Positions 3,001 to 52,082 of a stretch of DNA of 64,000 bases are shown here, piece after piece (the stretch's first letter is position 1; the number at the start of each line of letters is the position of its first letter). Both the position numbers and the translations under genes were made by a program. The notes under the pieces were generated by a model that searched no databases, was not told where the DNA came from, and saw only the letters and a list, made by a program, of their open reading frames with translations. The stretch lies in the IMG/VR virus record IMGVR_UViG_3300037455_001046, positions 7,901-71,900 of that record; one strand, 5' to 3'. The DNA is from a virus. Its lineage: Duplodnaviria; Caudoviricetes.

Positions 3001-6000
3001 GTAAACGAGGCCAGTCGTCTTTGGCTCGACTCACTGGATAAGGGCGAGATGAACTACAACAAACTCGCAGGAGAGGTAGAAGCCCGCAATGTGGAGAAGC
3101 GCTCGAGGATGACCGAGGAAGAGCGCCGCAACACCCCTCCGTCCGAGACCGAGGACGTAGCCCGCGAAGAGCAGGGGGTGAGGTTCTCCGTCTCCGCCGG
3201 GAGGGTGGCGCGCGAGAATAACGCCGTCTTCGATGGGAAGCGGTTCTTCAGCGGGAGCGTAAACCTCAAGAATGGCAAGATTGAGGAGACGCATACCTAC
3301 GAAGATGCAAAGGAAGATGATTTTGGGACGGGATATTTCTCGAAAGGCCAGCAAGACAAGATGGAGTCGGGAGAGTCCTCGTCCTTCTACATCGATGAGG
3401 ATGGGAAACCTCGCAATGGAGATGGAGAAGAATTCTCGCCGGATATTGAGGAGGCGATTCTCAAGCAGGTATATCCCTCCGTTCTTGAAAACAGAGTCAT
3501 CTATAATGGCGCTCCAATCTATGCCGGCAGCATCAATGTCAAGGATGGTGCTATTGAGGAGACCCACTCCTATGAAGATGCGGAAAGGAGCGACTTCGAT
3601 AATTATTTCTCGCCGGAGCAGGAGGAAAAGATAGATAGCGGCGACAATGTCATTTTCTGGATTGATGAGAATGGCATTCACTTCCAGGGCGACATCACCG
3701 AAGAGGAGAAAGAGCGCCTGACGGAGGAAATCAGGAATCAGGTGTTCTCTATTCGGACGACACCGGTCGATGAGAGCAATGAAATCCGGTTCAGCATCCG
3801 CGAGGGCGAGCCGCCGAAGAAGACCGGAATCGGCTACAAGGTGTTCTACCAGAAAGATGGCAAACTGTATCCGCCGATGGTCGCCAATGCAGGCGGCGTT
3901 GACACTCCTGTCGGTGTTTGGCTCGATGCGGAAGCCGCTCCTATCGTCGGCGAGTCGAAGACCGGCCGGCCGAAGGTGAAGCAGGGCGGAAAAGGCACGC
4001 AGGGTGGCAGCGGCACGCTCGCATATCGCCCCGGCTGGCATCTCGGCGAGATCCCGTATGCGCTCCAGTTCAACCGCATCAACCCGGAGACCGGAAAGAA
4101 GGAGCTCTTCCCGAAGGATTTCGTGTGGGCAGAGGTTGAATACGCGATGGATAACGACTACCAGCAGGAGGCCGAGGCCGAAGGTATGACCGAGGGCGGC
4201 AAGTTCCGCCACTCATATGCCGGCCTGAAGCGCGTCCCTGAGAACGGCTACTATCGCTACCGCACAAACCCGAATCCGGAGACCGATCCCTGGATCATCA
4301 CGGGCGCGATGAAGGTCAACCGCATCCTCTCCAACGAGGAGGTCGACGACCTGGTGCGGCAGGCCGGAAGGGAGCCGCAACAGAGAGAGGGGGATGTCCG
4401 CTTCTCCATCGCTAACGATACATCCGATGAATCTAAAATCGCGGAAGGAATTGTCAGCAGCTACGATAACCAAGACGGCTCCGAACAGTACCCTTGGGTC
4501 GATAACGGGGAACTCGTCGACAGGATAGAGAAGGAACTCCCGTACGGAGTAAAGACGAAGCCTATCTTCGCCAAGATAGATGAGTACCGTAGGCTGGATG
4601 AAGAAGATTTCAACGAAGGCCGCAGGGATTTCTCGGGCGGGGAAAAGGAAGAATTGTTCAACGAGATCTTGTCAGACTTGCAATCGCTCGCCAGAAACGA
4701 TACCGGGCGGGGTGGAGACCTCCGCTTCTCCGTCGCCAACGCCAACCAGGAGGTCTTCGTGAGCAACGCCCAGCGCGCCGTGGAGAACATCCGCCAGGAG
4801 AAGGCGACGCCGGAGCAGTGGCTGAAGATGATCGAGAAGGGCGGCGGCATGAAGGCCGGCGAAGACAAGTGGCTGGGTCTCTCCGACTGGCTGAAGGGCC
4901 AGGACAAGAAGAGCATCACCAAGCAGGAGATTCTCGACTACATTGGGGAGAACAAGATTATCATCGAGGAGACAAGGTATACCGGAAACCTCAGGGATGA
5001 GATACAGGAGCATATTGGGCAAGGAAGAAGCCTCTCCGAACTCCAAAGCGAGATTGATGAAATACGCGCCTCGGAGGAGTATAAAGGTCTTGCCGGAGAC
5101 AGGATTGATTCGGATCTCCTGACAGAGGTTATGATTGACCGCTACGGCGATGATTTCGAGATGGGTTACATCATTGATGAGGAGGGTATGATTGATTACG
5201 ACATCGATGTGTATGCGGATCGAGAGTATCAGGAGAATTATACTGGGAAATCCAAGCCGATTAATTTTGTTCGTAGAGGATACACCACCGAAGGTCTCGA
5301 GAACAACGCGGAAATTGCCTTGACAGTCCCGACCATTGAACCGTGGAATGAGCAAGATGATATCCACTTCGGCGATGCCGGCGGTGGCAGAGCAATCGCG
5401 TGGGTGAGGTTCGGCGACGCCTTTACTGGCGAGGAAAAGTACGATAGCGGTTTGCTCGGCAATGCCGAAGAGGCGCGGAAATCTATGGATGAGTACACCT
5501 CCGAATTGATGAAGAAATATGGGTTAAGTCGGCTCAACCAACTTGACTCCGCAATTTCCAAGGAGGAGAGAGACAAGATGCGCCGCCTCCAAAAGAACTA
5601 TACCCGGGCTTCCTGGCATGCCGGCGAATCCAGGCAGGTCAGCAATGAGAAGAAAGTCCTCTTCATCGACGAGATCCAGAGCAAGCGGCATCAGGAGGCG
5701 AGAGAGATGGGATGGTATAAGGGAGATGCGGAATATACGCGAAAACTTGAAGAGCTCCGCAATGAAAGAATGGCAGCATCAAGAGAATTGGATTCCGCTG
5801 TCGCGCAGATTTCCAAGGAATATGATGAACCATTATCTCGCACTTGGAACAGTCTTGTATACCCTCTCCGTTCGGACACTACCGAAAAAACAAAGAGATT
5901 GAGGGAGAAAGAAGCCCGTCGGAAATATGGAGACGAAACTTATGAAAGAATCGTAGAGCTTGAGAGGAAAGACGGCGATTTGGCGCAACGGCTTGCAAAC

Positions 6001-9000
6001 CTTATCGGCAAAAACGAGGACGGCGTCCCCGCCGCCCCCTTCGAGAAGAACTGGGCCGAGCTGTCGATGAAGCGGATGCTCCGCTACGCCGCCGAGAACG
6101 GCTACGACTATGTGGCCTGGACGACGGGAGAGCAGCAGGCGGAGAGATATAGCCTCGGAGAGGTTTTGTCTTCAGTAGACAAGACGGGCGACAATGATTA
6201 CACCCTGTACCTTACGAACGGAAAATCGACTGATATTGTTGTTGACGACGAGGGCGTCATTACGGGGACGGATGCCTTCAGCGAGGAATGGGGAGGTAAG
6301 CGGCTTTCGGAGGTAGTCGGAAAGGATCTCGCCGTTAAGATGATGTCAATGGAAGTCGATAGCGACGATCTTGAACATATCGATTCGAGAATCGGCGGCG
6401 AGGGCATGAAGGGCTTCTACGACGAGATTCTGCCCCGCTTCATGAACAAGTACGGCAAGCAGTGGGGTGTGAAGGTGGAAGACATCACGCTGCCCGATCT
6501 CGGATACGGCGGTATTACCGCCCACTCCGTTCCCGTCAACGAGGCGATGAAGGAGTCCGTGATGGAAGGCCAGCTGATGTTCTCGGTGTCCCAGCAGGAA
6601 CAGACTGACCGCGAGCGCCTGATCGACGCCGCCGAAAACGGCGGCCTGAAGGCCGTCATCGGCCCGGAGAATGTCGAGGACATCTACCGCGAGGCCTATG
6701 CCTCCATCCCCCAGAGCGCCCTGAAACCCATCGTGGAGAAAGGGCTCGCCGAGGGTGGCGACATCATGGGCCAGCTGCGAGTGTATCTGCACGACCTTGC
6801 GCTGAACGGCACGGAGAACGACGGCACGGGCCTCCTGTTCAAGCTCTTCGAGGACATCCGATACATGTCGAACAACCCTGCACTCACGGACAACGACATC
6901 CGCTGGATGCTCTGGAAGGAGACGTGGAGCGAAGACCCCGACAGCATCCTCGCCATCGCGGCCAACCGCGCCATGAGAAACCGCTGGGGCGTCGGCGAGC
7001 CGCCCGTGGAGCAGGATTTCAAGGAAGCTGCGGAAGACGCGCAGAAAGCGGCCGCAGAGCGCGTGGAAACGGCGAAAAACGACCTGAAAGAGGAGAAGAA
7101 AGGCCTCTACGGGCCGCTGGATTCCATCGCGAAGGCCATGGCCGCGCAGAAGACCTACGACAAGGCGACCGTGGACAGCATCGTCCGCTTCGCCAAGGAC
7201 ATCCTCAAGGGCGGAAACGTCAGCGAACTGAGCCGCAGAGAGGTGTCCCGGCTGCTCTCGCTCATCAACACCAGCACGGGCAAGAGCCCGAAGCAGGCCT
7301 CGCGCTATGCAGACCAGCTGGTGGAGATGCTCCTGAACCATATCGCCGAGGAGGAGAAGAAGAAATTCGAGAAACTCGTCAAGGTGAAGGCCAGCAAGGT
7401 CAAGGACAGCGGCGTCGAGGTGCAGGGCAAGCTCGACCTCGTCGGCCAGGCCGTCATCAAGGCCTTCCGCGAGAACATGGGCAGCCCCGTGGAGGACATC
7501 CGCACCCGCCTCGAGGAGGTGTCCGACCAAATCACCAGCGAGGACGACGCCGTCCGCGAGGGTGCCCTGGCCGAATACAGCGGCCTGATGCTGGCTCTCC
7601 AGTACAAGGAGGACATCGCGGAGAACATCGAGGAATACAAGGATCTCAAGAAGGAATTCGACGCCACCGGCGTGAAACTCGCCGACGTCATCGGGCGCAA
7701 GGCCTACGAAGAGTTCGTCAAGGAGTCGCGAGACGCCCTCCGCAAGAACCTGATGGAGCGCATTGATATGTATCGCGACCTCTCGAAGCGGCTGACCGAC
7801 ATCATCACGGGCAGCGCAGAGGCCGCCGCGGCCTTCCGCAAGGCCGAGCAGCAGCGCGTGGAGGAGATCCACCACGATGCGAACCGCGACATGAAGGGAA
7901 CGCCGTCGAACGAGCATCTGCGCGAGAATGCCTGGCAGCGGTTCCTGAACTCCGACTTCATCCGTTTCTTCTTCAAGTCGCTGTCCACGGCAGACCAGAT
8001 GTTCCGCCTCCTGGGCCGCAAGAGCGTGACCGGAGAGGGCTATCTCTTCAACCGCTTCATCAAGAACGGCTTCATCCCGGCCAGCGAGAAAGCCTCGCGC
8101 GGCATCCTCGAAGCCACGCAGATCCTCGACAAGAAGGTCAGCGAGGTATTCGGCAAGAAGGGGATGAGGTGGAGCGACCTGTACAAGGAGTCTCGCAAGA
8201 AGGGCGGCGAGGTGGAATTCCTCGACGGCGGCGAGATGAAGACGCACGACCTGACGCAGGGCAACCTCCTCTACATCTATATGGCCAACAAGATGCCGGA
8301 CGGCAAGATGAAGCTCCGCAAGATGGGCATCGGCGAGGACACCGTGGAGGAGATCAAGAAGAACCTCGACCCTCGCTTCATAGAGCTGGCCGACTGGCTC
8401 CAGGATGAGTTCTATGTGAACCTCCGCAACAAGTACAACGCCGTCCACGAACGGATGTTCGGTGCGCCGATGGCCGCCATCGAGGACTACGTCCCGTTGA
8501 AGATCCTGGCCAACGCCCGATTCGAGGACGTAGACCTCGGCGCGCAGACGCAGGGAGAGATGTCGTCCACCATCACGGGCAGCATCATCAAGCGCCGCAA
8601 GAACTCCCTCGCGCTGGACATCATGCACACCGACGCCTTCTCCCTGGCCATCGAGCACATCGAGCAGATGGAGGACTGGGCGGCCTTCGCCGAGCTCCGC
8701 CGCGATATGAACACCCTGCTTTCGTACAAGCACTTCCGCAACCAGGTGATGAATATGGACACCGTCTACGGCAGCGGCCGGACGCTCTGGAGTAACTTCT
8801 CCGACGCCTGCACCGTGCTGGTGGGCAAGTACCAGCCGAAGGTGAAGAAGGGTGACATCGACACCATTGCGCTGAACGTGGCCAAGGGCGTAACGGCTGC
8901 GAAGATCTCGTTCCGCGTGAACACCGCCCTCAAGCAGCTGCTCTCGTTCCCGGCGTATTTCTCGGATGCCCGCCCCGATCTCCTCGCGGCGAGCATCGGG

Positions 9001-45920: not shown

Positions 45921-46175
45921 ATGGCTATGCGAACCATCCAATACAAAGACATCAAGGAGCGCCTCACCCTGCTGGGTCAGGAGGCGCACACGATTGACGG
46001 CAAGAAGCGTAAATATGCCAAATGGCATTTCTCGCCGGGGACACTCAACGACGGGGTCGATTACGCATCGCCCGAGTACCTTGACCCGATCATCTTCTTC
46101 ACGAAGCGCCCCGCGACCAACGACGCCGCCAGGCGCATCGCCTACCTGTTCGAACTCGACATCAAATGGAGATGA
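45921..46175 (+). CDS. Hypothetical early protein
   Basis: 84-aa ORF, ATGA-coupled to the next gene. Confidence 0.6.
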   Translation: MAMRTIQYKDIKERLTLLGQEAHTIDGKKRKYAKWHFSPGTLNDGVDYASPEYLDPIIFFTKRPATNDAARRIAYLFELDIKWR

Positions 46176-46492
46176 ACGCCGCCGACGCCCTCGACCGCTT
46201 CGCCGGACTTTGCGACAGGCTCTGCCGCCTGATCGACGCGACCGACGACAAGATCTCCGCCCTGGAGAGGAAGGTCCGCGACCTCGAGGCCGGACAGGCC
46301 GAGCTGATGACCGCCACGGATGTGGCGAAGGCCACCGGCTGGTCGAAGTCCGCCGTGGCGAAGTGGGTTGAGACGGGGTTCATCAAGTCCGTGCATGTGA
46401 CGGGCAAGAAGAACCCGCTCATCCCCGCCAGCGAGGTGGAGACCATCCTCAACCGCCGGGGCATCGGCAAGAACTATGGGGGGATCAGGTGA
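46172..46492 (+). CDS. Excisionase-like HTH protein with N-terminal coiled coil
   Basis: LMTATDVAKATGWSKSAVAKWVETGFIKS MerR/HTH_17-like motif. Confidence 0.65.
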   Translation: MNAADALDRFAGLCDRLCRLIDATDDKISALERKVRDLEAGQAELMTATDVAKATGWSKSAVAKWVETGFIKSVHVTGKKNPLIPASEVETILNRRGIGKNYGGIR

Positions 46493-46644
46493 TGGAATGC
46501 TCCGACAAGTGCAAGTTTTTCCGCTGGTGGTACAACCGCCGCTACGACGAACCCGAGGACTTCTGCCGCCTCCTCCGCCGGAGGGTCTTCTTCGGCCCCG
46601 GCCACGACTGCAAGCACGGAATAGAGAAACAACCAACCAGATAA
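46492..46644 (+). CDS. 50-aa Cys-containing protein (not in the ORF track)
   Basis: MECSDKCKFF...FC...DCKH; coupled to the upstream stop. Confidence 0.5.
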   Translation: MECSDKCKFFRWWYNRRYDEPEDFCRLLRRRVFFGPGHDCKHGIEKQPTR

Positions 46645-46646
46645 CC

Positions 46647-46832
46647 ATGAAATCGAACCTCTGGAAAGCATTCGTCATCGGGATGATGATAGTCTGCACC
46701 GCCTTGTTCATCGCCTGCCTCATCGCGGGGTTCAGCGGCAAGGCCCATTGCTTCATCACCGCCATCATCTTCGCCATGGGCGCGCTCGTCAATGCGGATG
46801 AGCTGGCGGACATCATCAAGGAGAACAAGTAG
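46647..46832 (+). CDS. Small two-TM membrane protein
   Basis: MKSNLWKAFVIGMMIVCTALFIACLIAG... hydrophobic helices. Confidence 0.6.
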   Translation: MKSNLWKAFVIGMMIVCTALFIACLIAGFSGKAHCFITAIIFAMGALVNADELADIIKENK

Positions 46833-46833
46833 C

Positions 46834-47007
46834 ATGCTCAGTCGCAACGACAGGATCATCGTGGAGGCCATCAAGAAGGCCCAGGTCGTCGAGATCAGGC
46901 TTCTCGACCGCGGAGCGGAACATACCGTCCGCATCACGCGCGACTCCCGTTGTTGCCACGACATAGCGCTGGCCGTTCAGGACTACCTGAAGCGATCGGC
47001 GAAATAA
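46834..47007 (+). CDS. Hypothetical protein (57 aa)
   Basis: ORF in the operon chain. Confidence 0.5.
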   Translation: MLSRNDRIIVEAIKKAQVVEIRLLDRGAEHTVRITRDSRCCHDIALAVQDYLKRSAK

Positions 47008-47270
47008 CCCCCGCCGGAGGGCATCCGGCAAAGGCGAACACCGGCCTTCTCAAGAACGATGGTAGAAAGTGCGGCGACAAATTTACGCCGCGTGGGGTAA
47101 CGGCCTACATTAAGATTCGCGGGGCGCGTCCATAGCATAAGGATGCCAAGTAGGTTCCGGGGGAACCGAAAACGGCAAGGGAGGAAAGCATAACTCCTTG
47201 CGTCCCGGCCTGTAATGGGCGCGGCATCCGCCGCAAGGTCTAAAGCCCTTTGAAACGCAGATAGCAGGAA
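47008..47270 (+). ncRNA. Candidate structured non-coding RNA / leader upstream of the methyltransferase
   Basis: About 280 nt without a credible ORF and at least five consecutive stem-loops. Confidence 0.35.
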
Positions 47271-47288
47271 ACGAAAACACTTCAAGAT

Positions 47289-47990
47289 ATGGAATGGAAA
47301 TACACCAAGGAGAACCCTCTCCGCGTGGTCACCCTCTGCTCCGGCTATGATAGCCAGCTGATGGCGATCCGCAACCTGGGCATCCCCTATGAGTGCGTCG
47401 GCTGGTCGGAGATCGACACCTACGCCATCCGCGCCCACAACGCCGTGTTCCCCGAACTCGCGGGAAAGAACCTCGGCGACATGACCAAGATAGACTGGGA
47501 CCTCGTCGATGACTTCGACCTCCTGTTCTACTCCACGCCCTGCACCGACTTTTCCAACGCGGGCAAGCAGGCAGGCGGAGAGGAGGGGAGCGGAACGCGC
47601 TCCTCGATCCTCTGGTGGACGCGCTACGCCGTCCAGAAGAAGAAGCCGAAATACCTCATCATGGAGAACGTCAAGGCGCTGGTCAGCGACAAATTCCGTC
47701 CGCTCTTCCACAAGTGGTGCGATGAGCTTCAATCTTACGGTTACACGAACTTCGCCCAGGTGCTGAACGCAAAGGACTACGGCATCCCGCAGAACAGGGA
47801 GCGCATCTTCGTGGTTTCCATCCTCGGCGACGCCTGGTTCAACTTCCCCCAGCCGTTCCCGCTCAAGCTCCGGCTCAAGGACATGCTGGAGGAGAAGGTC
47901 GACGAGAAATACTATCTCCCTCAGGACAAGGTAGACCAGTTCATCGAGCAGCTCGACGATGAAAAGAAGGCTCTCATCGAGGCCGATTAA
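47289..47990 (+). CDS. dcm: C5-cytosine DNA methyltransferase, N-terminal catalytic half (motifs I-VIII)
   Basis: LCSGYDSQ (motif I variant), STPCTDFS (IV), MENVKAL (VI), IPQNRERIF (VIII); stops before the TRD and motifs IX-X. Confidence 0.92.
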   Translation: MEWKYTKENPLRVVTLCSGYDSQLMAIRNLGIPYECVGWSEIDTYAIRAHNAVFPELAGKNLGDMTKIDWDLVDDFDLLFYSTPCTDFSNAGKQAGGEEGSGTRSSILWWTRYAVQKKKPKYLIMENVKALVSDKFRPLFHKWCDELQSYGYTNFAQVLNAKDYGIPQNRERIFVVSILGDAWFNFPQPFPLKLRLKDMLEEKVDEKYYLPQDKVDQFIEQLDDEKKALIEAD

Positions 47991-50528
47991 CACCACCCCG
48001 TCCGGCATGGCTTACGGGATCAAGGCGAACTATTTCAAGAACGCAAGCCTGACGACCCTCACAGGGGGGGGGGCATCACTTCCCCTGTACCGGCGTGATG
48101 GAGATTTATGAAGACGACTCCCCTCAACACGGACATTGACGGCAACGCCTCCACCATCCTGGCGGGATACTACAAGTACGGCGTGGCGACCTTGATGCTC
48201 GGCAACTACGGAACGAGCGGAACAATAATCCTTGAGGCATATGAAAGCCCTATCGGCGCGGAATCCGCAGAAGAACTACGGCAGGGCTGAGTGGAGCGAC
48301 ATCGCCGCCACCCTGCTGGCAACGGACTACAAAGCCCCCCCCCTGTGCCTGATCTATGAAGATTGTACCAATCAACACGACGGCTGACGGCTGCGCGTTC
48401 GCGATACGGACTGGGTATGAGCGCCACGCCTACCTCAATGGGATGACTCGGGGGGGGGGGCTTCTATCCGGCAACGGGAGTCCTGGAGGTCGAGGACGAT
48501 ACTCAACGCCTGTGCGGATGGGACTTGCAAGACGATATTCGCCCGGCTGGGACGGCTGAGTTGGGAGAACTACCTCGGTAGGCTGGAACACGGCGGCTGG
48601 GATTGCCAAATGACCTGCATTCTTGAAACCTATGAAGATTGACGACACCATCCTGAAGGTCCGATTTACGCGAAACCGTATCGAGGGAATCCTGAACTAT
48701 CCGTACATATTTCTCCCTCATACACCCTCCCGCCCATGTGTCTTCGACTCGTTCCACGGCACAATCGGATTCTACATTTTCCCTTTCGCAGTAACCACGC
48801 GGATCAACGCCAGCAACCAAGTATTCCTGAAGGTCTATGAAGACGTGGATGATCCCGCTCAAGGGCAAGGGGCATGAGGTCACGGCGCGGAACATCGCGC
48901 TGGGGGAGCCTATGGAACTCGCCCGGCCCTTGACCACGGACGAATGGGACAACGCATTGCTATATGAGAAACAAGAGGCTGATGTGGGTCACGGAGAAGG
49001 CCTTTAGGATGCGATTAGGGGGGGGGGCAGTACGAACTCGACGGATACAACCAGCAGGTGCTGACAGACGGGGTATCCTACGCCATCACGACCCGCACCT
49101 TCGGCGACAACAACCATTTCCTGCTGGAGGTAGATGAATGACTCGATAAGAATCCGCCAGGCCACGAAGAGGGGCTACATTGAAGTTCCACGGGGGGGGT
49201 GTTCGACGGGTCGTACCTTACAAGCAAGACACGCAGGGGCAGATACCAGAACGGCCTCTGCCCGACGCTGACCGCCGGGGAGCCGGAGATATACTACTAT
49301 GAAGGAATCGAAGAAGCCTGAAGGCCTGTGGTACAACGGGCGCTTCTGCCCGGTCTGGAGTTCGCTCCATTGGAATGCCACAACGGGCTTCTATAGGGGG
49401 GGGCTTAAAGACCTCGCGAGGGCATGCAAATGCGATGACTCGCTTGCAGTCGTAGTTGAATATGACACCGAAACTGATACGGATAGGTAACATTTACGGA
49501 TCACAATACGGCCCCTCATTCGCCGGCAATGTCTATAATCCGTCAGGCTTATCCCCGGCGATAATGACTATGCAGGGGGGGGGCAGAGAACCGATGATAG
49601 CGACCTATGAGGACGGACGAGACGATATGCCTCAACAGCAAGGTTGACGGGAAGCAGCCATCTCTTGCCGATCGGATATACTACGGGGGGGGGTGTATGA
49701 CGGCGATCACTACCGGCTGGCATCAGTATGTGCTTTATGAAGAAGATAATGGTCCGATACCCTCACGGGTACTATAGGGGGGGGGCATGGGAGAACGAGT
49801 ATTCACCGACCCTGACCACATCCGCCTGGGAGTTCAACAACTATGTCCTTGAGATTGATTGCCACGATGGTGATGACGCGGGAGCGGAGCGAGGAGGAGA
49901 AACGCCGTAGGCATCTCCACGGAGACCGCGGCGCGAAGTTCAGCAAGGGAAAGATTCCAAAGCTCGCCCCCCCCCCATATCATAGGAACGATAACCACTT
50001 TCATCACGAAGGACATCCTGATAGCGGAGATATATGATGATCGGTAACATCTACCCATCGAACGGCCAGAACGGCGAGATACACACCACGGGCGACTGCT
50101 CCCCGGCAATCATATCCGGGCAGGGCGTAAAGGGCAGAGGCATCGGAAGCTGCAACGCGCCGAAGATCATCCTATACGACGACTACAACCACAAGATTGC
50201 CCCCCCCTATGGGTCGGTACGGTAGTCCAGAACTTCGGCCGGTCCGCCTGGCGCAACGGCTGGAAACTGATAGAGATCTATGAAGGCGATGCAGAGGGTG
50301 GGCGACAGGGATAAGACCTGCTGGAGCGTCAAGGACATCGCGTTCACGATAACCGCCAACGCCCAGAGCAAGGTTCAGCTGATAGTTGACTATGAAACCG
50401 CAGATAATCCCGATCGGGATGATATGGAAGAGTGAGGCCAACGGCTGGGTGTATCATAGGGGGGGGGGCTCTCCCCGACCCTGTGCTGCGGCGCGCATAA
50501 CGGAGTACAACCAAAGATTAATGACAAT
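47959..50528 (+). other. Array of about 17 TRD-like mini-ORF cassettes between the two methyltransferase halves
   Basis: Cassette starts at 47959, 48108, 48241, 48356, (~48490, no ATG), 48632, 48837, 48964, 49134, 49299, 49462, 49607, 49737, ~49843, 50034, 50280 and 50392. Modules resemble C5-MTase variable-region units (IGNIY..G.VY...G.SP.I; RQATKRGY...KTRRGR...CPTL), most ending [ILV]xYE. Confidence 0.75.
48064..50468. repeat. Twelve poly-G/poly-C homopolymer tracts (8-11 nt)
   Basis: G10 48064, C9 48335, G11 48450, G10 49018, G8 49192, G8 49396, G9 49575, G9 49685, G9 49777, C10 49967, C8 50200, G10 50459. Confidence 0.9.
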
Positions 50529-50807
50529 ATGGCAAAGATTTATCGTATCAGGAAGCTCACTCCGCGCGAGTGCGGAAGACTTATGGGATGCAGTGATGCG
50601 GACCTTGATAGAATGATCCGCTACCCCTATCGGCCTGATGAAAACGGAGAGTGGACTCTACCGAAAGGCGTAGATGAACAGATGGCAAAAAAGATGAGAA
50701 TAAGTGAATCTCAACTTTATAAATGTTTCGGGAATAGCATTGTCGTTCAAGTCCTTGAAGGGATTTTCACTCAATTACTGAGGGCCGATGGAGACTGCCT
50801 TTTTTGA
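50529..50807 (+). CDS. C5-cytosine DNA methyltransferase, C-terminal part (motifs IX-X)
   Basis: RIRKLTPRECGRLMG (IX) and QLYKCFGNSIVVQVL (X). The same frame extends upstream to the G10 tract at 50459. Confidence 0.85.
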   Translation: MAKIYRIRKLTPRECGRLMGCSDADLDRMIRYPYRPDENGEWTLPKGVDEQMAKKMRISESQLYKCFGNSIVVQVLEGIFTQLLRADGDCLF

Positions 50808-51357
50808 AGAATGGAAAGACATAGCCGGTTTTGAGGGGGTATATCAGGTATCTACCCTCGGACGTGTCCGCTCATGTGATAGATACCTCCGAGCATGCCA
50901 CGGAGGCAGACAGTTTAAAAAAGGACAAATAATAAGTCCCAAACGAATGCGGAACGGCTACTTTACCGTCGGTCTAAGTTATAACGGTAGGGTTAAGCGC
51001 ATGTATATTCATAGGCTTGTGGCAACGGTTTTCTTGTCTAATCCGAATTCCTATCCAGAAATAAACCACAGGGATGAGGATAAAGGGAATAACCGCTTTG
51101 ACAACCTGGAATGGTGTTCTCATAGGTACAACATCAATTATGGTACGACCGCGAAGAGAATAAGCATATCCCACCTCAATGGTGGATATGGGAAAAAACC
51201 AGTTGCGCAGCTCAAAGATGGGGTAGAAGTCGCCAGATACGATAGCGCCGCAGATGCATCAAGAGCAACGGGCATTGACGCCTCCGCGATCCGAAAGGTA
51301 TGTTTATCTAAGGAAAAGCACAACACGGCTGGCGGGTTCAGGTGGGTCTCCGTTTAG
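50788..51357 (+). mobile_element. NUMOD4-HNH-NUMOD1 free-standing homing endonuclease
   Basis: EEWKDIAGFEGVYQVSTLGRVRS (NUMOD4), IHRLVA...NHRDEDKGNNRFDNLEWC (HNH), YDSAADASRATG (NUMOD1); low GC. Confidence 0.88.
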
Positions 51358-51659
51358 GCGTCTTTGCTCAACTCTTTATTTTGACAATCATTGGGGCGAA
51401 TTCTTCTTTTCTCGTCAAGACATCAAGGCGGCGTAACGCCCCCGCCGCCGACTTTCAACGGGCTCCGCCGCCGGTGTACAAACCAGGCAAGCATTACAAA
51501 TCCGTCCGCTGGTCGCGGAGTCCGATTTTGAGCCATACCAAAGGATAAGCCGTACGTTATGAATTGATTATTGGTTGGTTGCAGTCCGGGCGGAACGCTT
51601 ATCGCCGCCCTTTGACATACCAGGCACACGAAACACAACACCTTAACACACACAACACC

Positions 51660-52082
51660 ATGAAAGAGAACAATGAAGTGCAGCCGGCACAGGCCGCTGC
51701 CGCGGGATTCCCCGCCCTCAAGAACCTGCCCGACCTCTCCAAGTGCGAGGTCGAGCCCATCGAGCTCGTCGGAGACTACTGGTCTCCCGAAACCGCCGGC
51801 GAGAAGAAGCGCGTCTTCTTCTACGACTTCTCCACGCAGTCCGTCCTCGACCAGGCCACGGGCGAGGAGCGCGACCTGAACATCGTCCGCTTCATCGAAC
51901 CCACGGGCGGCGACTACCGCCTCATCCGCAACGGCAGCGCCCGCCTCGTCGGCCAGTTCGAGCAGATGGCGCGCTCGCTCTCCGTGGGCGACGCCTTCGA
52001 GATCACCTATCTCGGCAAGAAGAAGACCACGACCGGCAAGCAGGCCGACTCCTGGAGCGTCAAACGGATCATCCTGAAGTAG
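51660..52082 (+). CDS. Putative single-stranded DNA-binding (OB-fold) protein
   Basis: 140 aa, beta-rich with FEITYLGKKKT; next to the exonuclease; A/C-rich leader. Confidence 0.45.
   Translation: MKENNEVQPAQAAAAGFPALKNLPDLSKCEVEPIELVGDYWSPETAGEKKRVFFYDFSTQSVLDQATGEERDLNIVRFIEPTGGDYRLIRNGSARLVGQFEQMARSLSVGDAFEITYLGKKKTTTGKQADSWSVKRIILK

Follow-up and report, generated by a model that had tools for sequence, protein, structure and literature searches.

Multispecific C5 cytosine DNA methyltransferases are known from Bacillus phages (M.SPRI, M.Phi3TI, M.Rho11sI and M.H2I), where tandem target recognition domains (TRDs) of about 40-50 amino acids (aa) lie between the conserved motifs VIII and IX. 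Phase variation of DNA modification is known from phasevarions, in which simple sequence repeats switch mod genes, hsdS genes or the poly-G/C methylases of H. pylori. Natural two-chain C5 methyltransferases have also been described, namely M.AquI, which is split inside the variable region, and M.EcoHK31I, of which the small chain is encoded in an overlapping frame; together with the fragment complementation obtained for M.HhaI, M.BspRI and M.SssI, they indicate that the C5 fold tolerates splitting (PMC3404938). In EcoKI, hsdM and hsdS are translationally coupled through an overlapping stop/start (ATGA) (PMC3510504). Here we analyse a 64-kb window of the phage record IMGVR_UViG_3300037455_001046 (71.9 kb, IMG/VR; rated complete by CheckV), in which a C5 cytosine DNA methyltransferase is split over many reading frames (positions 47289-50807, + strand; all window features below are on this strand). 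This locus combines the properties of multispecific and of split C5 methyltransferases with start/stop coupling and homopolymer phase variation, and differs from each of these systems. Its recognition units are joined by a recurrent five-nucleotide (nt) junction, which probably both provides the start codon of each unit and insulates the neighbouring units from poly-G switching.

The open reading frame (ORF) at 47289-47990 (233 aa; "N part") matches positions 2-214 of the 324 positions of PF00145, corresponding to motifs I-VIII (E-value = 4.7 × 10-46). Bases 50469-50804 match positions 270-323 (E-value = 1.7 × 10-7), corresponding to motifs IX-X ("C part"). The motifs are thus found in the usual order of a C5 methyltransferase. 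The two parts are separated by 2.5 kb containing about 18 TRD-sized units ("cassettes") of 112-205 nt. The cassettes occupy the slot between motifs VIII and IX where C5 methyltransferases have their TRD, and the 40-70 residues encoded by each exhibit TRD traits, a T-[LIV] motif and Gly-rich loops. A profile of one cassette family (B) finds the TRD of M.HhaI (residues 223-257) in all of its top PDB matches, although these matches are weak (E-value = 0.7).

Like the Bacillus multispecific enzymes, the array is phage-borne, and each of its TRDs probably has its own specificity, gained or lost as a module. In those enzymes, however, all TRDs belong to one polypeptide. In the array each TRD has its own ATG at a +1 offset, many of them carry poly-G/C tracts, and the N and C parts are separate ORFs. 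A single chain of the M.SPRI type, uniting all TRDs and both catalytic parts, is not what the window encodes: every boundary exhibits the +1 offset, and the upstream frame meets a stop within 0-25 codons. The array as we read it resembles M.AquI and M.EcoHK31I in that the catalytic fold would be assembled from separately translated pieces. These enzymes have two chains and one specificity, whereas the array has up to about 20 cistrons and a recognition domain that is apparently free-standing and exchangeable. A layout of the M.AquI type could be obtained from the ORF 47289-47990 and the last cassette (cassette 18) with the C part, if the G10 tract of that cassette shifts; the sixteen other cassettes have no counterpart in M.AquI.

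The cassettes are chained by a (T/G)ATGA junction that was described in a sequence-only reading of the window. All 15 sites listed there carry TATGA or GATGA on the + strand, and the triple reading proposed for them holds at each: the bases encode Tyr/Asp-Glu/Asp in the frame in which the upstream cassette ends, the +1 frame has ATG and the +2 frame has TGA. The example cited there is correct as well, the ORF of cassette 1 (47959-48111) ending on the TGA at 48109-48111, which overlaps the ATG at 48108. We identified one additional junction, a GATGA at 49872, at the start of cassette 14, which bears a C10 tract. Including the boundary between the N part and cassette 1, the offset to the next cassette is +1 at all 18 boundaries. 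An ATG overlaps the NAT GAN codons at 16 of them (the 15 listed sites and 49872); at the other two (GACGA, 48495-48499; TACGA, 50175-50179) the ATG is lost and the offset is kept. Two adjacent pairs of cassettes occupy one junction-to-junction interval each (246 and 276 nt). TATGA is found 15 times in the 2.58-kb array (5.8 per kb), versus 1.16 per kb for the + strand elsewhere in the window. In first-order Markov copies it occurs 2.9 ± 1.7 times, with a maximum of 10 among 2000 copies.

A search with the N part returned 38 loci from viruses and 80 from metagenomes (referred to by L numbers), the samples being mainly rumen and gut. We curated 13 arrays by hand, of 1.2-3 kb each. Their 127 junctions read TATGA (99), GATGA (14), TATGG (6), AATGA (5), GATGG (2) and CATGA (1). 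The invariant part of the junction is the ATG, the preceding residue (Tyr, Asp, Asn or His) and the following one (Glu, Asp or Gly) being variable. The junction recurs in many further metagenome loci, including lineages with N parts only 46-59% identical (L014, L075 and L079). The layout is conserved in dozens of related phages. The architecture is retained, and both the N and the C part are intact, where N-part identity ranges from 57 to 96%. At least 15 cassette families are present, the order and copy number of which vary between arrays. More distant relatives (L015, L016, L019 and L025) have several in-frame TRDs within one conventional ORF, from which it follows that the split, junction-bearing form is derived from the classical multispecific type. 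A cassette homologue, belonging to a homologous array, is found in a 296-kb contig of a Bacteroidales metagenome-assembled genome, and no Shine-Dalgarno motif precedes any of the phage's genes; both observations fit a Bacteroidales host.

In several of these loci the pieces of the enzyme are arranged as separate genes. In L041, of which the N part is 96% identical to that of the window, an HNH endonuclease ORF (5620-6030) is inserted after the last cassette and before the C part, which has its own ATG. The C part of L007 begins at a junction ATG, with no TRD attached. In L014 (4015-5115; a contig shared with L092) the core is permuted, motifs IX-X being fused before motifs I-VIII in one ORF, and the TATGA-joined cassettes lie upstream. 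Homologues of cassette 2 of the window are annotated in public data as free-standing proteins of 43-66 aa.

Codon usage at the junction shows that its ATG is under selection. To avoid circularity, we took 21 loci that had not been used to define the junctions and located their cassette ends by tblastn with 14-residue end sequences, that is by protein homology. The codon aligned with the terminal Tyr is TAT in 112 cases and TAC in 9, while TAT makes up 38% of the Tyr codons in the phage's long genes (binomial P = 1.3 × 10-36). The third base is thus held as T, which the overlapping ATG needs and the upstream protein does not. The cassettes themselves are also maintained. Of the 34 that lack any run of 7 nt or more, 31 have an ORF that is unbroken between the junction ATG and the following junction. 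For tract-bearing cassettes the proportion is 24 of 64 (24 in frame, "ON"; 40 out of frame, "OFF"), close to the third expected if homopolymer length varies freely (Fisher P = 1.5 × 10-7 for the difference between the two classes). L012 has no run longer than 6 nt, and 11 of the 12 cassettes called in it are intact ORFs of their own, joined in the same way. At tract positions it can have non-slippery codons, the homologue of window cassette 4 reading Arg-Gly-Gly-Lys-Phe. Taken together, the codon bias and the intact cassettes show that the cassettes are maintained as small genes starting at the junction, and they behave as such.

These data also bear on the possibility that the array is a decaying or silent library, made either of the remains of a fused enzyme or of untranslated spares that serve as gene-conversion donors for the expressed last cassette, with the junction simply inherited by duplication. 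Two window cassettes without an ATG (48495 and 50175), the predominance of OFF states among tract-bearing cassettes and the chimeric last cassette of L041 would all be expected of such a library. The sequence-only reading had taken the constancy of the +1 offset as evidence against random decay. This is a weak argument alone, because the cassettes are homologous and inherited the junction; it is the codon bias and the intactness of the tract-less cassettes that make the case. Moreover, the architecture is conserved over a wide range of N-part identities with both catalytic parts intact, and silent donors need neither starts nor surrounding stops. We consider decay or silence very improbable.

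The window contains 12 G or C runs of 8-11 nt, all of which are inside cassettes; no other run of 8 nt or more occurs in the 64 kb. These tracts have the properties of homopolymer contingency loci: runs of at least 7-8 nt in coding sequence, of which the length differs between relatives and sets the reading frame. For instance, the tract of family-A cassettes is G11 in the window, G12 in L002, G10 in L009 and G8 in L001, L003 and L007, and is interrupted in L012. Sequencing artefacts were ruled out as the source of the poly-G tracts, because the tracts fall on conserved Gly/Pro positions of the TRDs and are found again in many independent assemblies. As in phasevarions, the reading frame of a specificity determinant depends on homopolymers within the coding sequence. 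A phasevarion, however, has one tract in one gene, and the array has up to 12 tracts in one operon. Such a number can work only if each unit restarts translation, which is the role that we propose for the junction. Two further repeat observations were made in related loci. A G8 tract is also present inside the catalytic N part at position 3332 of L121, L122 and L123. Four low-GC relatives (L017, L018, L020 and L021) carry perfect pentanucleotide repeats between the N part and the TRDs, as in L018 with (CAGAA)17.6 at 6387-6474 and (AGACA)7.4 at 6762-6798, where the three frames read EQNRT/RQTDR/TRQDK. These repeats may be a different repeat-based frame switch for TRD choice.

Stop codons are concentrated near the next start in each of the three frames, as judged against nulls in which the protein was kept and synonymous codons were resampled. 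The ON frame passes the junction and meets a stop at a median of 10 codons past the Tyr codon (mean 10.9; null 16.8 ± 0.8). The +1 OFF frame, which is the frame of the next ATG, exhibits a stop before that ATG in 60 of 65 single-tract cassettes (null 48.3 ± 3.1), mostly 6-15 nt upstream of it. The +2 OFF frame is open from the tract to the junction, ending on the TGA of ATGA, in 36 of the 65 (null 28.7 ± 2.8, P = 0.012). Of 10 tract cassettes in the window, 8 have this frame open as far as the TGA of the junction, including runs of 33 and 35 codons. The frame ending on ATGA is a weaker signal than the other two, namely the start-frame stop that precedes the ATG and the shortness of the ON-frame overlap. 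With stops near the next start in all three frames, read-through fusion into the next cassette is avoided. The proposal of the sequence-only reading, that the junction insulates downstream cassettes from upstream switches, is borne out by the selected ATG, by the +2 frame ending on TGA and by the other OFF frame stopping before the ATG, and the idea of insulation appears to extend to this third frame as well.

The resulting arrangement resembles hsdM-hsdS, where the start of the specificity gene also overlaps the end of the preceding gene and translation is coupled. At a classical ATGA the upstream ORF ends on the TGA. In the array the ON frame passes the site as NAT GAN (typically Tyr-Glu), the +2 OFF frame alone ends on TGA, and the third frame meets its stop slightly before the site. 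We regard the junction as a novel form of translational coupling that serves a combinatorial, phase-variable specificity array.

An alternative, also raised in the sequence-only reading, is that the junction is a +1 frameshift site: a programmed shift or hop at every junction would skip one base after NAT and yield one multi-TRD polyprotein. The offset is always +1, and a shift after TAT would read ...Y-K-x-x-P..., giving a chain like that of the single-ORF relatives L015, L016, L019 and L025. However, a conserved slippery codon in the ribosomal P site followed by a slow or stop codon, as expected for programmed +1 frameshifting, is not found here. The P-site codon varies (TAT, GAT, AAT, CAT; also TATGT in L012) and the ATG is the constant element, while the A-site codons are ordinary (GAA, GAG, GAC, GAT or GGN), with no stop or rare codon next. 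To arrive at motif IX, the ribosome would have to shift about 17 times in succession. A single OFF tract would then eliminate all that follows it, and yet 40 of 64 tract cassettes are OFF in the assemblies. Finally, the C part of L041 is set apart by the HNH gene. Thus, frameshifting at the junctions is hardly credible, and is the least probable of the alternatives that we considered.

The junctions also mark the limits of cassette gain and loss. Window cassette 3 and cassettes 15-16 are absent from L059, and window cassette 7 is absent from L001, in each case exactly from junction to junction, with homology resuming at the TATGA. Many segment ends in blastn comparisons lie within 2 nt of a junction. 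The junction might therefore be mainly a recombination site, with a conserved octamer serving as microhomology or as a recombinase target and the ATG being secondary. The octamer TATGAAGA is present in 38 of the 127 junctions, and the differences in family order and copy number between arrays also agree with this possibility. Selection for whole modules would nevertheless leave the same junction-to-junction variants whatever the mechanism, so that a role in recombination is not separable from it. The shared sequence is only 5-8 nt long, and no recombinase is linked to the array. Furthermore, the bias of TAT over TAC and the clustering of stops in three frames are left unexplained. The rearranged last cassette of L041 (5453-5603) does not join at a junction either. 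It is a chimera of a family-A first half (like window 48108-48196) and the usual last-cassette second half (like window 50456-50520), joined at a G9 tract, which suggests deletion or recombination at G tracts. The breakpoints at TATGA that the sequence-only reading asked for were thus recovered, as a pattern that does not by itself establish a recombination site. We regard recombination as an unlikely main role, although a contribution of the junction to recombination is possible and not exclusive of a start-codon role.

We therefore favour the junction as the start codon of each cassette cistron, and consider this probable from the observed architecture and its conservation, from the selection acting on the ATG, from where the stops lie and from the way in which cassettes are gained and lost as modules. 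Each cassette start overlaps the final two sense codons of the previous cassette, NAT GAN (Tyr/Asp/Asn then Glu/Asp). One transcript would thus carry many cistrons: the N part, about 17 TRD mini-ORFs of 40-80 aa, and the C part with or without the last TRD fused. Each cassette would re-initiate at its own ATG, and the ribosome would be released close to the next ATG whatever its frame after the poly-G/C tract. A change in tract length would then switch only its own cassette, and the downstream cassettes and the C part would still be translated. Initiation may rely on termination-reinitiation coupling, the host being one that does not use Shine-Dalgarno sequences, and free TRD peptides may dock on the core formed by the N and C parts to give alternative specificities. 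In its most far-reaching form, the cassettes would be free-standing specificity subunits comparable to HsdS of Type I systems, docking in trans on a TRD-less two-piece core. The junction, read as sense, start and stop in its three frames and preceded by a stop in the start frame, would be a selected restart device at every cassette. The locus would be an operon of about 20 cistrons with a dozen independent switches, and up to 2^12 methylation phenotypes would be available per phage population. We put this form forward tentatively, and stop a little short of believing it.

Several points weigh against the start-codon reading or limit it. We infer from sequence both the translation from junction ATGs and the activity of free TRD peptides. 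When a cassette is ON, its frame terminates 3' of the next ATG, unlike the geometry of classical coupling. The enrichment of the OFF frame terminating on ATGA is modest (P = 0.012). The junction is inherited with the cassettes, so that some of the counts are not independent events. L121, L122 and L123, which represent one Bacteroidales prophage and were compared in search of tract-length polymorphism, are identical in all tract lengths and one single-nucleotide polymorphism apart, so that no switching within a population was seen; these assemblies may not be independent. An isolated cassette (family B, 61 aa) is not predicted to fold (AlphaFold2 confidence score pLDDT of 53, with an alignment of 9 rows), a result that is uninformative.

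The individual cassettes were rebuilt from the three-frame translation of the segments between tracts. Each consists of a first half starting at the ATG, usually a tract, and a second half ending with a hydrophobic strand and Tyr/Asp-Glu/Asp. As assembled in the window, 10 cassettes have an open frame between the ATG and the terminal Tyr-Glu, and in 7 the frame shifts at the tract of the cassette. The last 11 codons of the N part overlap cassette 1, the junction GATGA (47958-47962) reading D-E in the N part and its ATG (47959) opening cassette 1 in the +1 frame. Cassette 1 (47959-48112, family A) is OFF at G10 (48064-48073), its ORF ending on the TGA of the next junction as described above. 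Cassette 2 (48108-48290, family A) has no tract and is intact; it passes the junction at 48240 as Y-E and meets a stop 14 codons on. Cassette 3 (48241-48387, family F) is ON with C9 (48335-48343). Cassette 4 (48356-48500, family A; native end VLEVEDD) is OFF at G11 (48450-48460). Cassette 5 (48496-48636) keeps the +1 offset, but its start has decayed to ACG within the GACGA at 48495-48499. It is translatable only via the shifted cassette 4, and its homologues in L001, L006 and L007 have an ATG. Cassettes 6 (48632-48877, family E) and 7 (48837-49007, family G) are tract-less and intact ORFs.

The following seven cassettes all carry a tract. Cassette 8 (48964-49138, family O) is OFF at G10 (49018-49027), the shifted frame being open for 35 codons and ending on the junction TGA at 49135-49137. 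Cassette 9 (49134-49303, family I) is OFF at G8 (49192-49199). Four successive cassettes are ON: cassette 10 (49299-49490, family C; G8 at 49396-49403), cassette 11 (49462-49647, family B, of which the profile weakly matches the M.HhaI TRD; G9 at 49575-49583), cassette 12 (49607-49777, family D; G9 at 49685-49693) and cassette 13 (49737-49910, family J; G9 at 49777-49785). Cassette 14 (49873-50038, family D), opened by the junction GATGA at 49872, is OFF at C10 (49967-49976). Cassettes 15 and 16 share the interval 50034-50284; the former is tract-less, the latter belongs to family H and carries C8 (50200-50207), and their boundary is the TACGA at 50175-50179 where the ATG is lost. Cassette 17 (50280-50435, family M) is an intact ORF without a tract. 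Cassette 18 (50392-50528), with its ATG at 50392, is OFF at G10 (50459-50468). It has no junction downstream and enters motif IX in frame if the length of the G10 changes, so that the right tract state yields an in-frame fusion to the C part. The C part also has its own ATG (50529-50807, 92 aa).

The C part of the window contains an insertion of 24-26 residues between motifs IX and X (residues 29-54; 50613-50690). In the alignment of C parts this insertion is also present in L001, L003, L006 and L009, and is absent in L004, L007 and L010-L012. Directly after the C part, the window exhibits a homing endonuclease of the NUMOD4/HNH_3 type (50788-51357). Together with the HNH ORF of L041, it suggests that homing endonucleases target the methyltransferase locus repeatedly. 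On the 5' side, a sub-threshold match to the type-P1 twister ribozyme (RF03160) is located at 47209-47268 (+ strand), 20 nt upstream of the methyltransferase ATG, and another at 3754-3814 of L041. The two score 32 and 34.8 bits, below the gathering score of 67.2; the full model is covered, and the UAA and AAGCCC elements are kept. The match sits in a 59-nt block that is 90% identical between the window and L041, the flanks of which do not align. A typed DNA pattern of the twister core gave no match across the loci searched. L041 also has a tRNA gene (4377-4473) directly upstream of the methyltransferase, with about 32 extra nt in the anticodon region, which may contain an intron. An Rfam scan of 46000-52000 detected no intron or recoding element within the array. 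A scan for sigma-70 promoters and terminators found nothing above chance inside the array, where no terminator was found on the + strand; the promoter model is probably not applicable to Bacteroidales.

A literature search for phage C5 methyltransferases with TRD arrays that are poly-G-switched or separately encoded, which left most subscription journals outside its reach, found no description of such a system, and to our knowledge no C5 methyltransferase has been described in which the DNA-recognition domain works as a small protein of its own. What the present analysis contributes is evidence that the junction ATG and the stops surrounding it are under selection. If our reading is correct, many frame-shifting switches can be accommodated in one operon without killing the downstream units, as a junction of 5 nt would restart translation in any frame. 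The DNA-recognition domain of a C5 methyltransferase could then act as a separate small protein, and the array would amount to a natural kit of exchangeable specificity modules of 40-70 aa. For the phages of rumen and gut Bacteroidales, such an array would provide a large combinatorial bet-hedging against restriction and methylation-dependent restriction.

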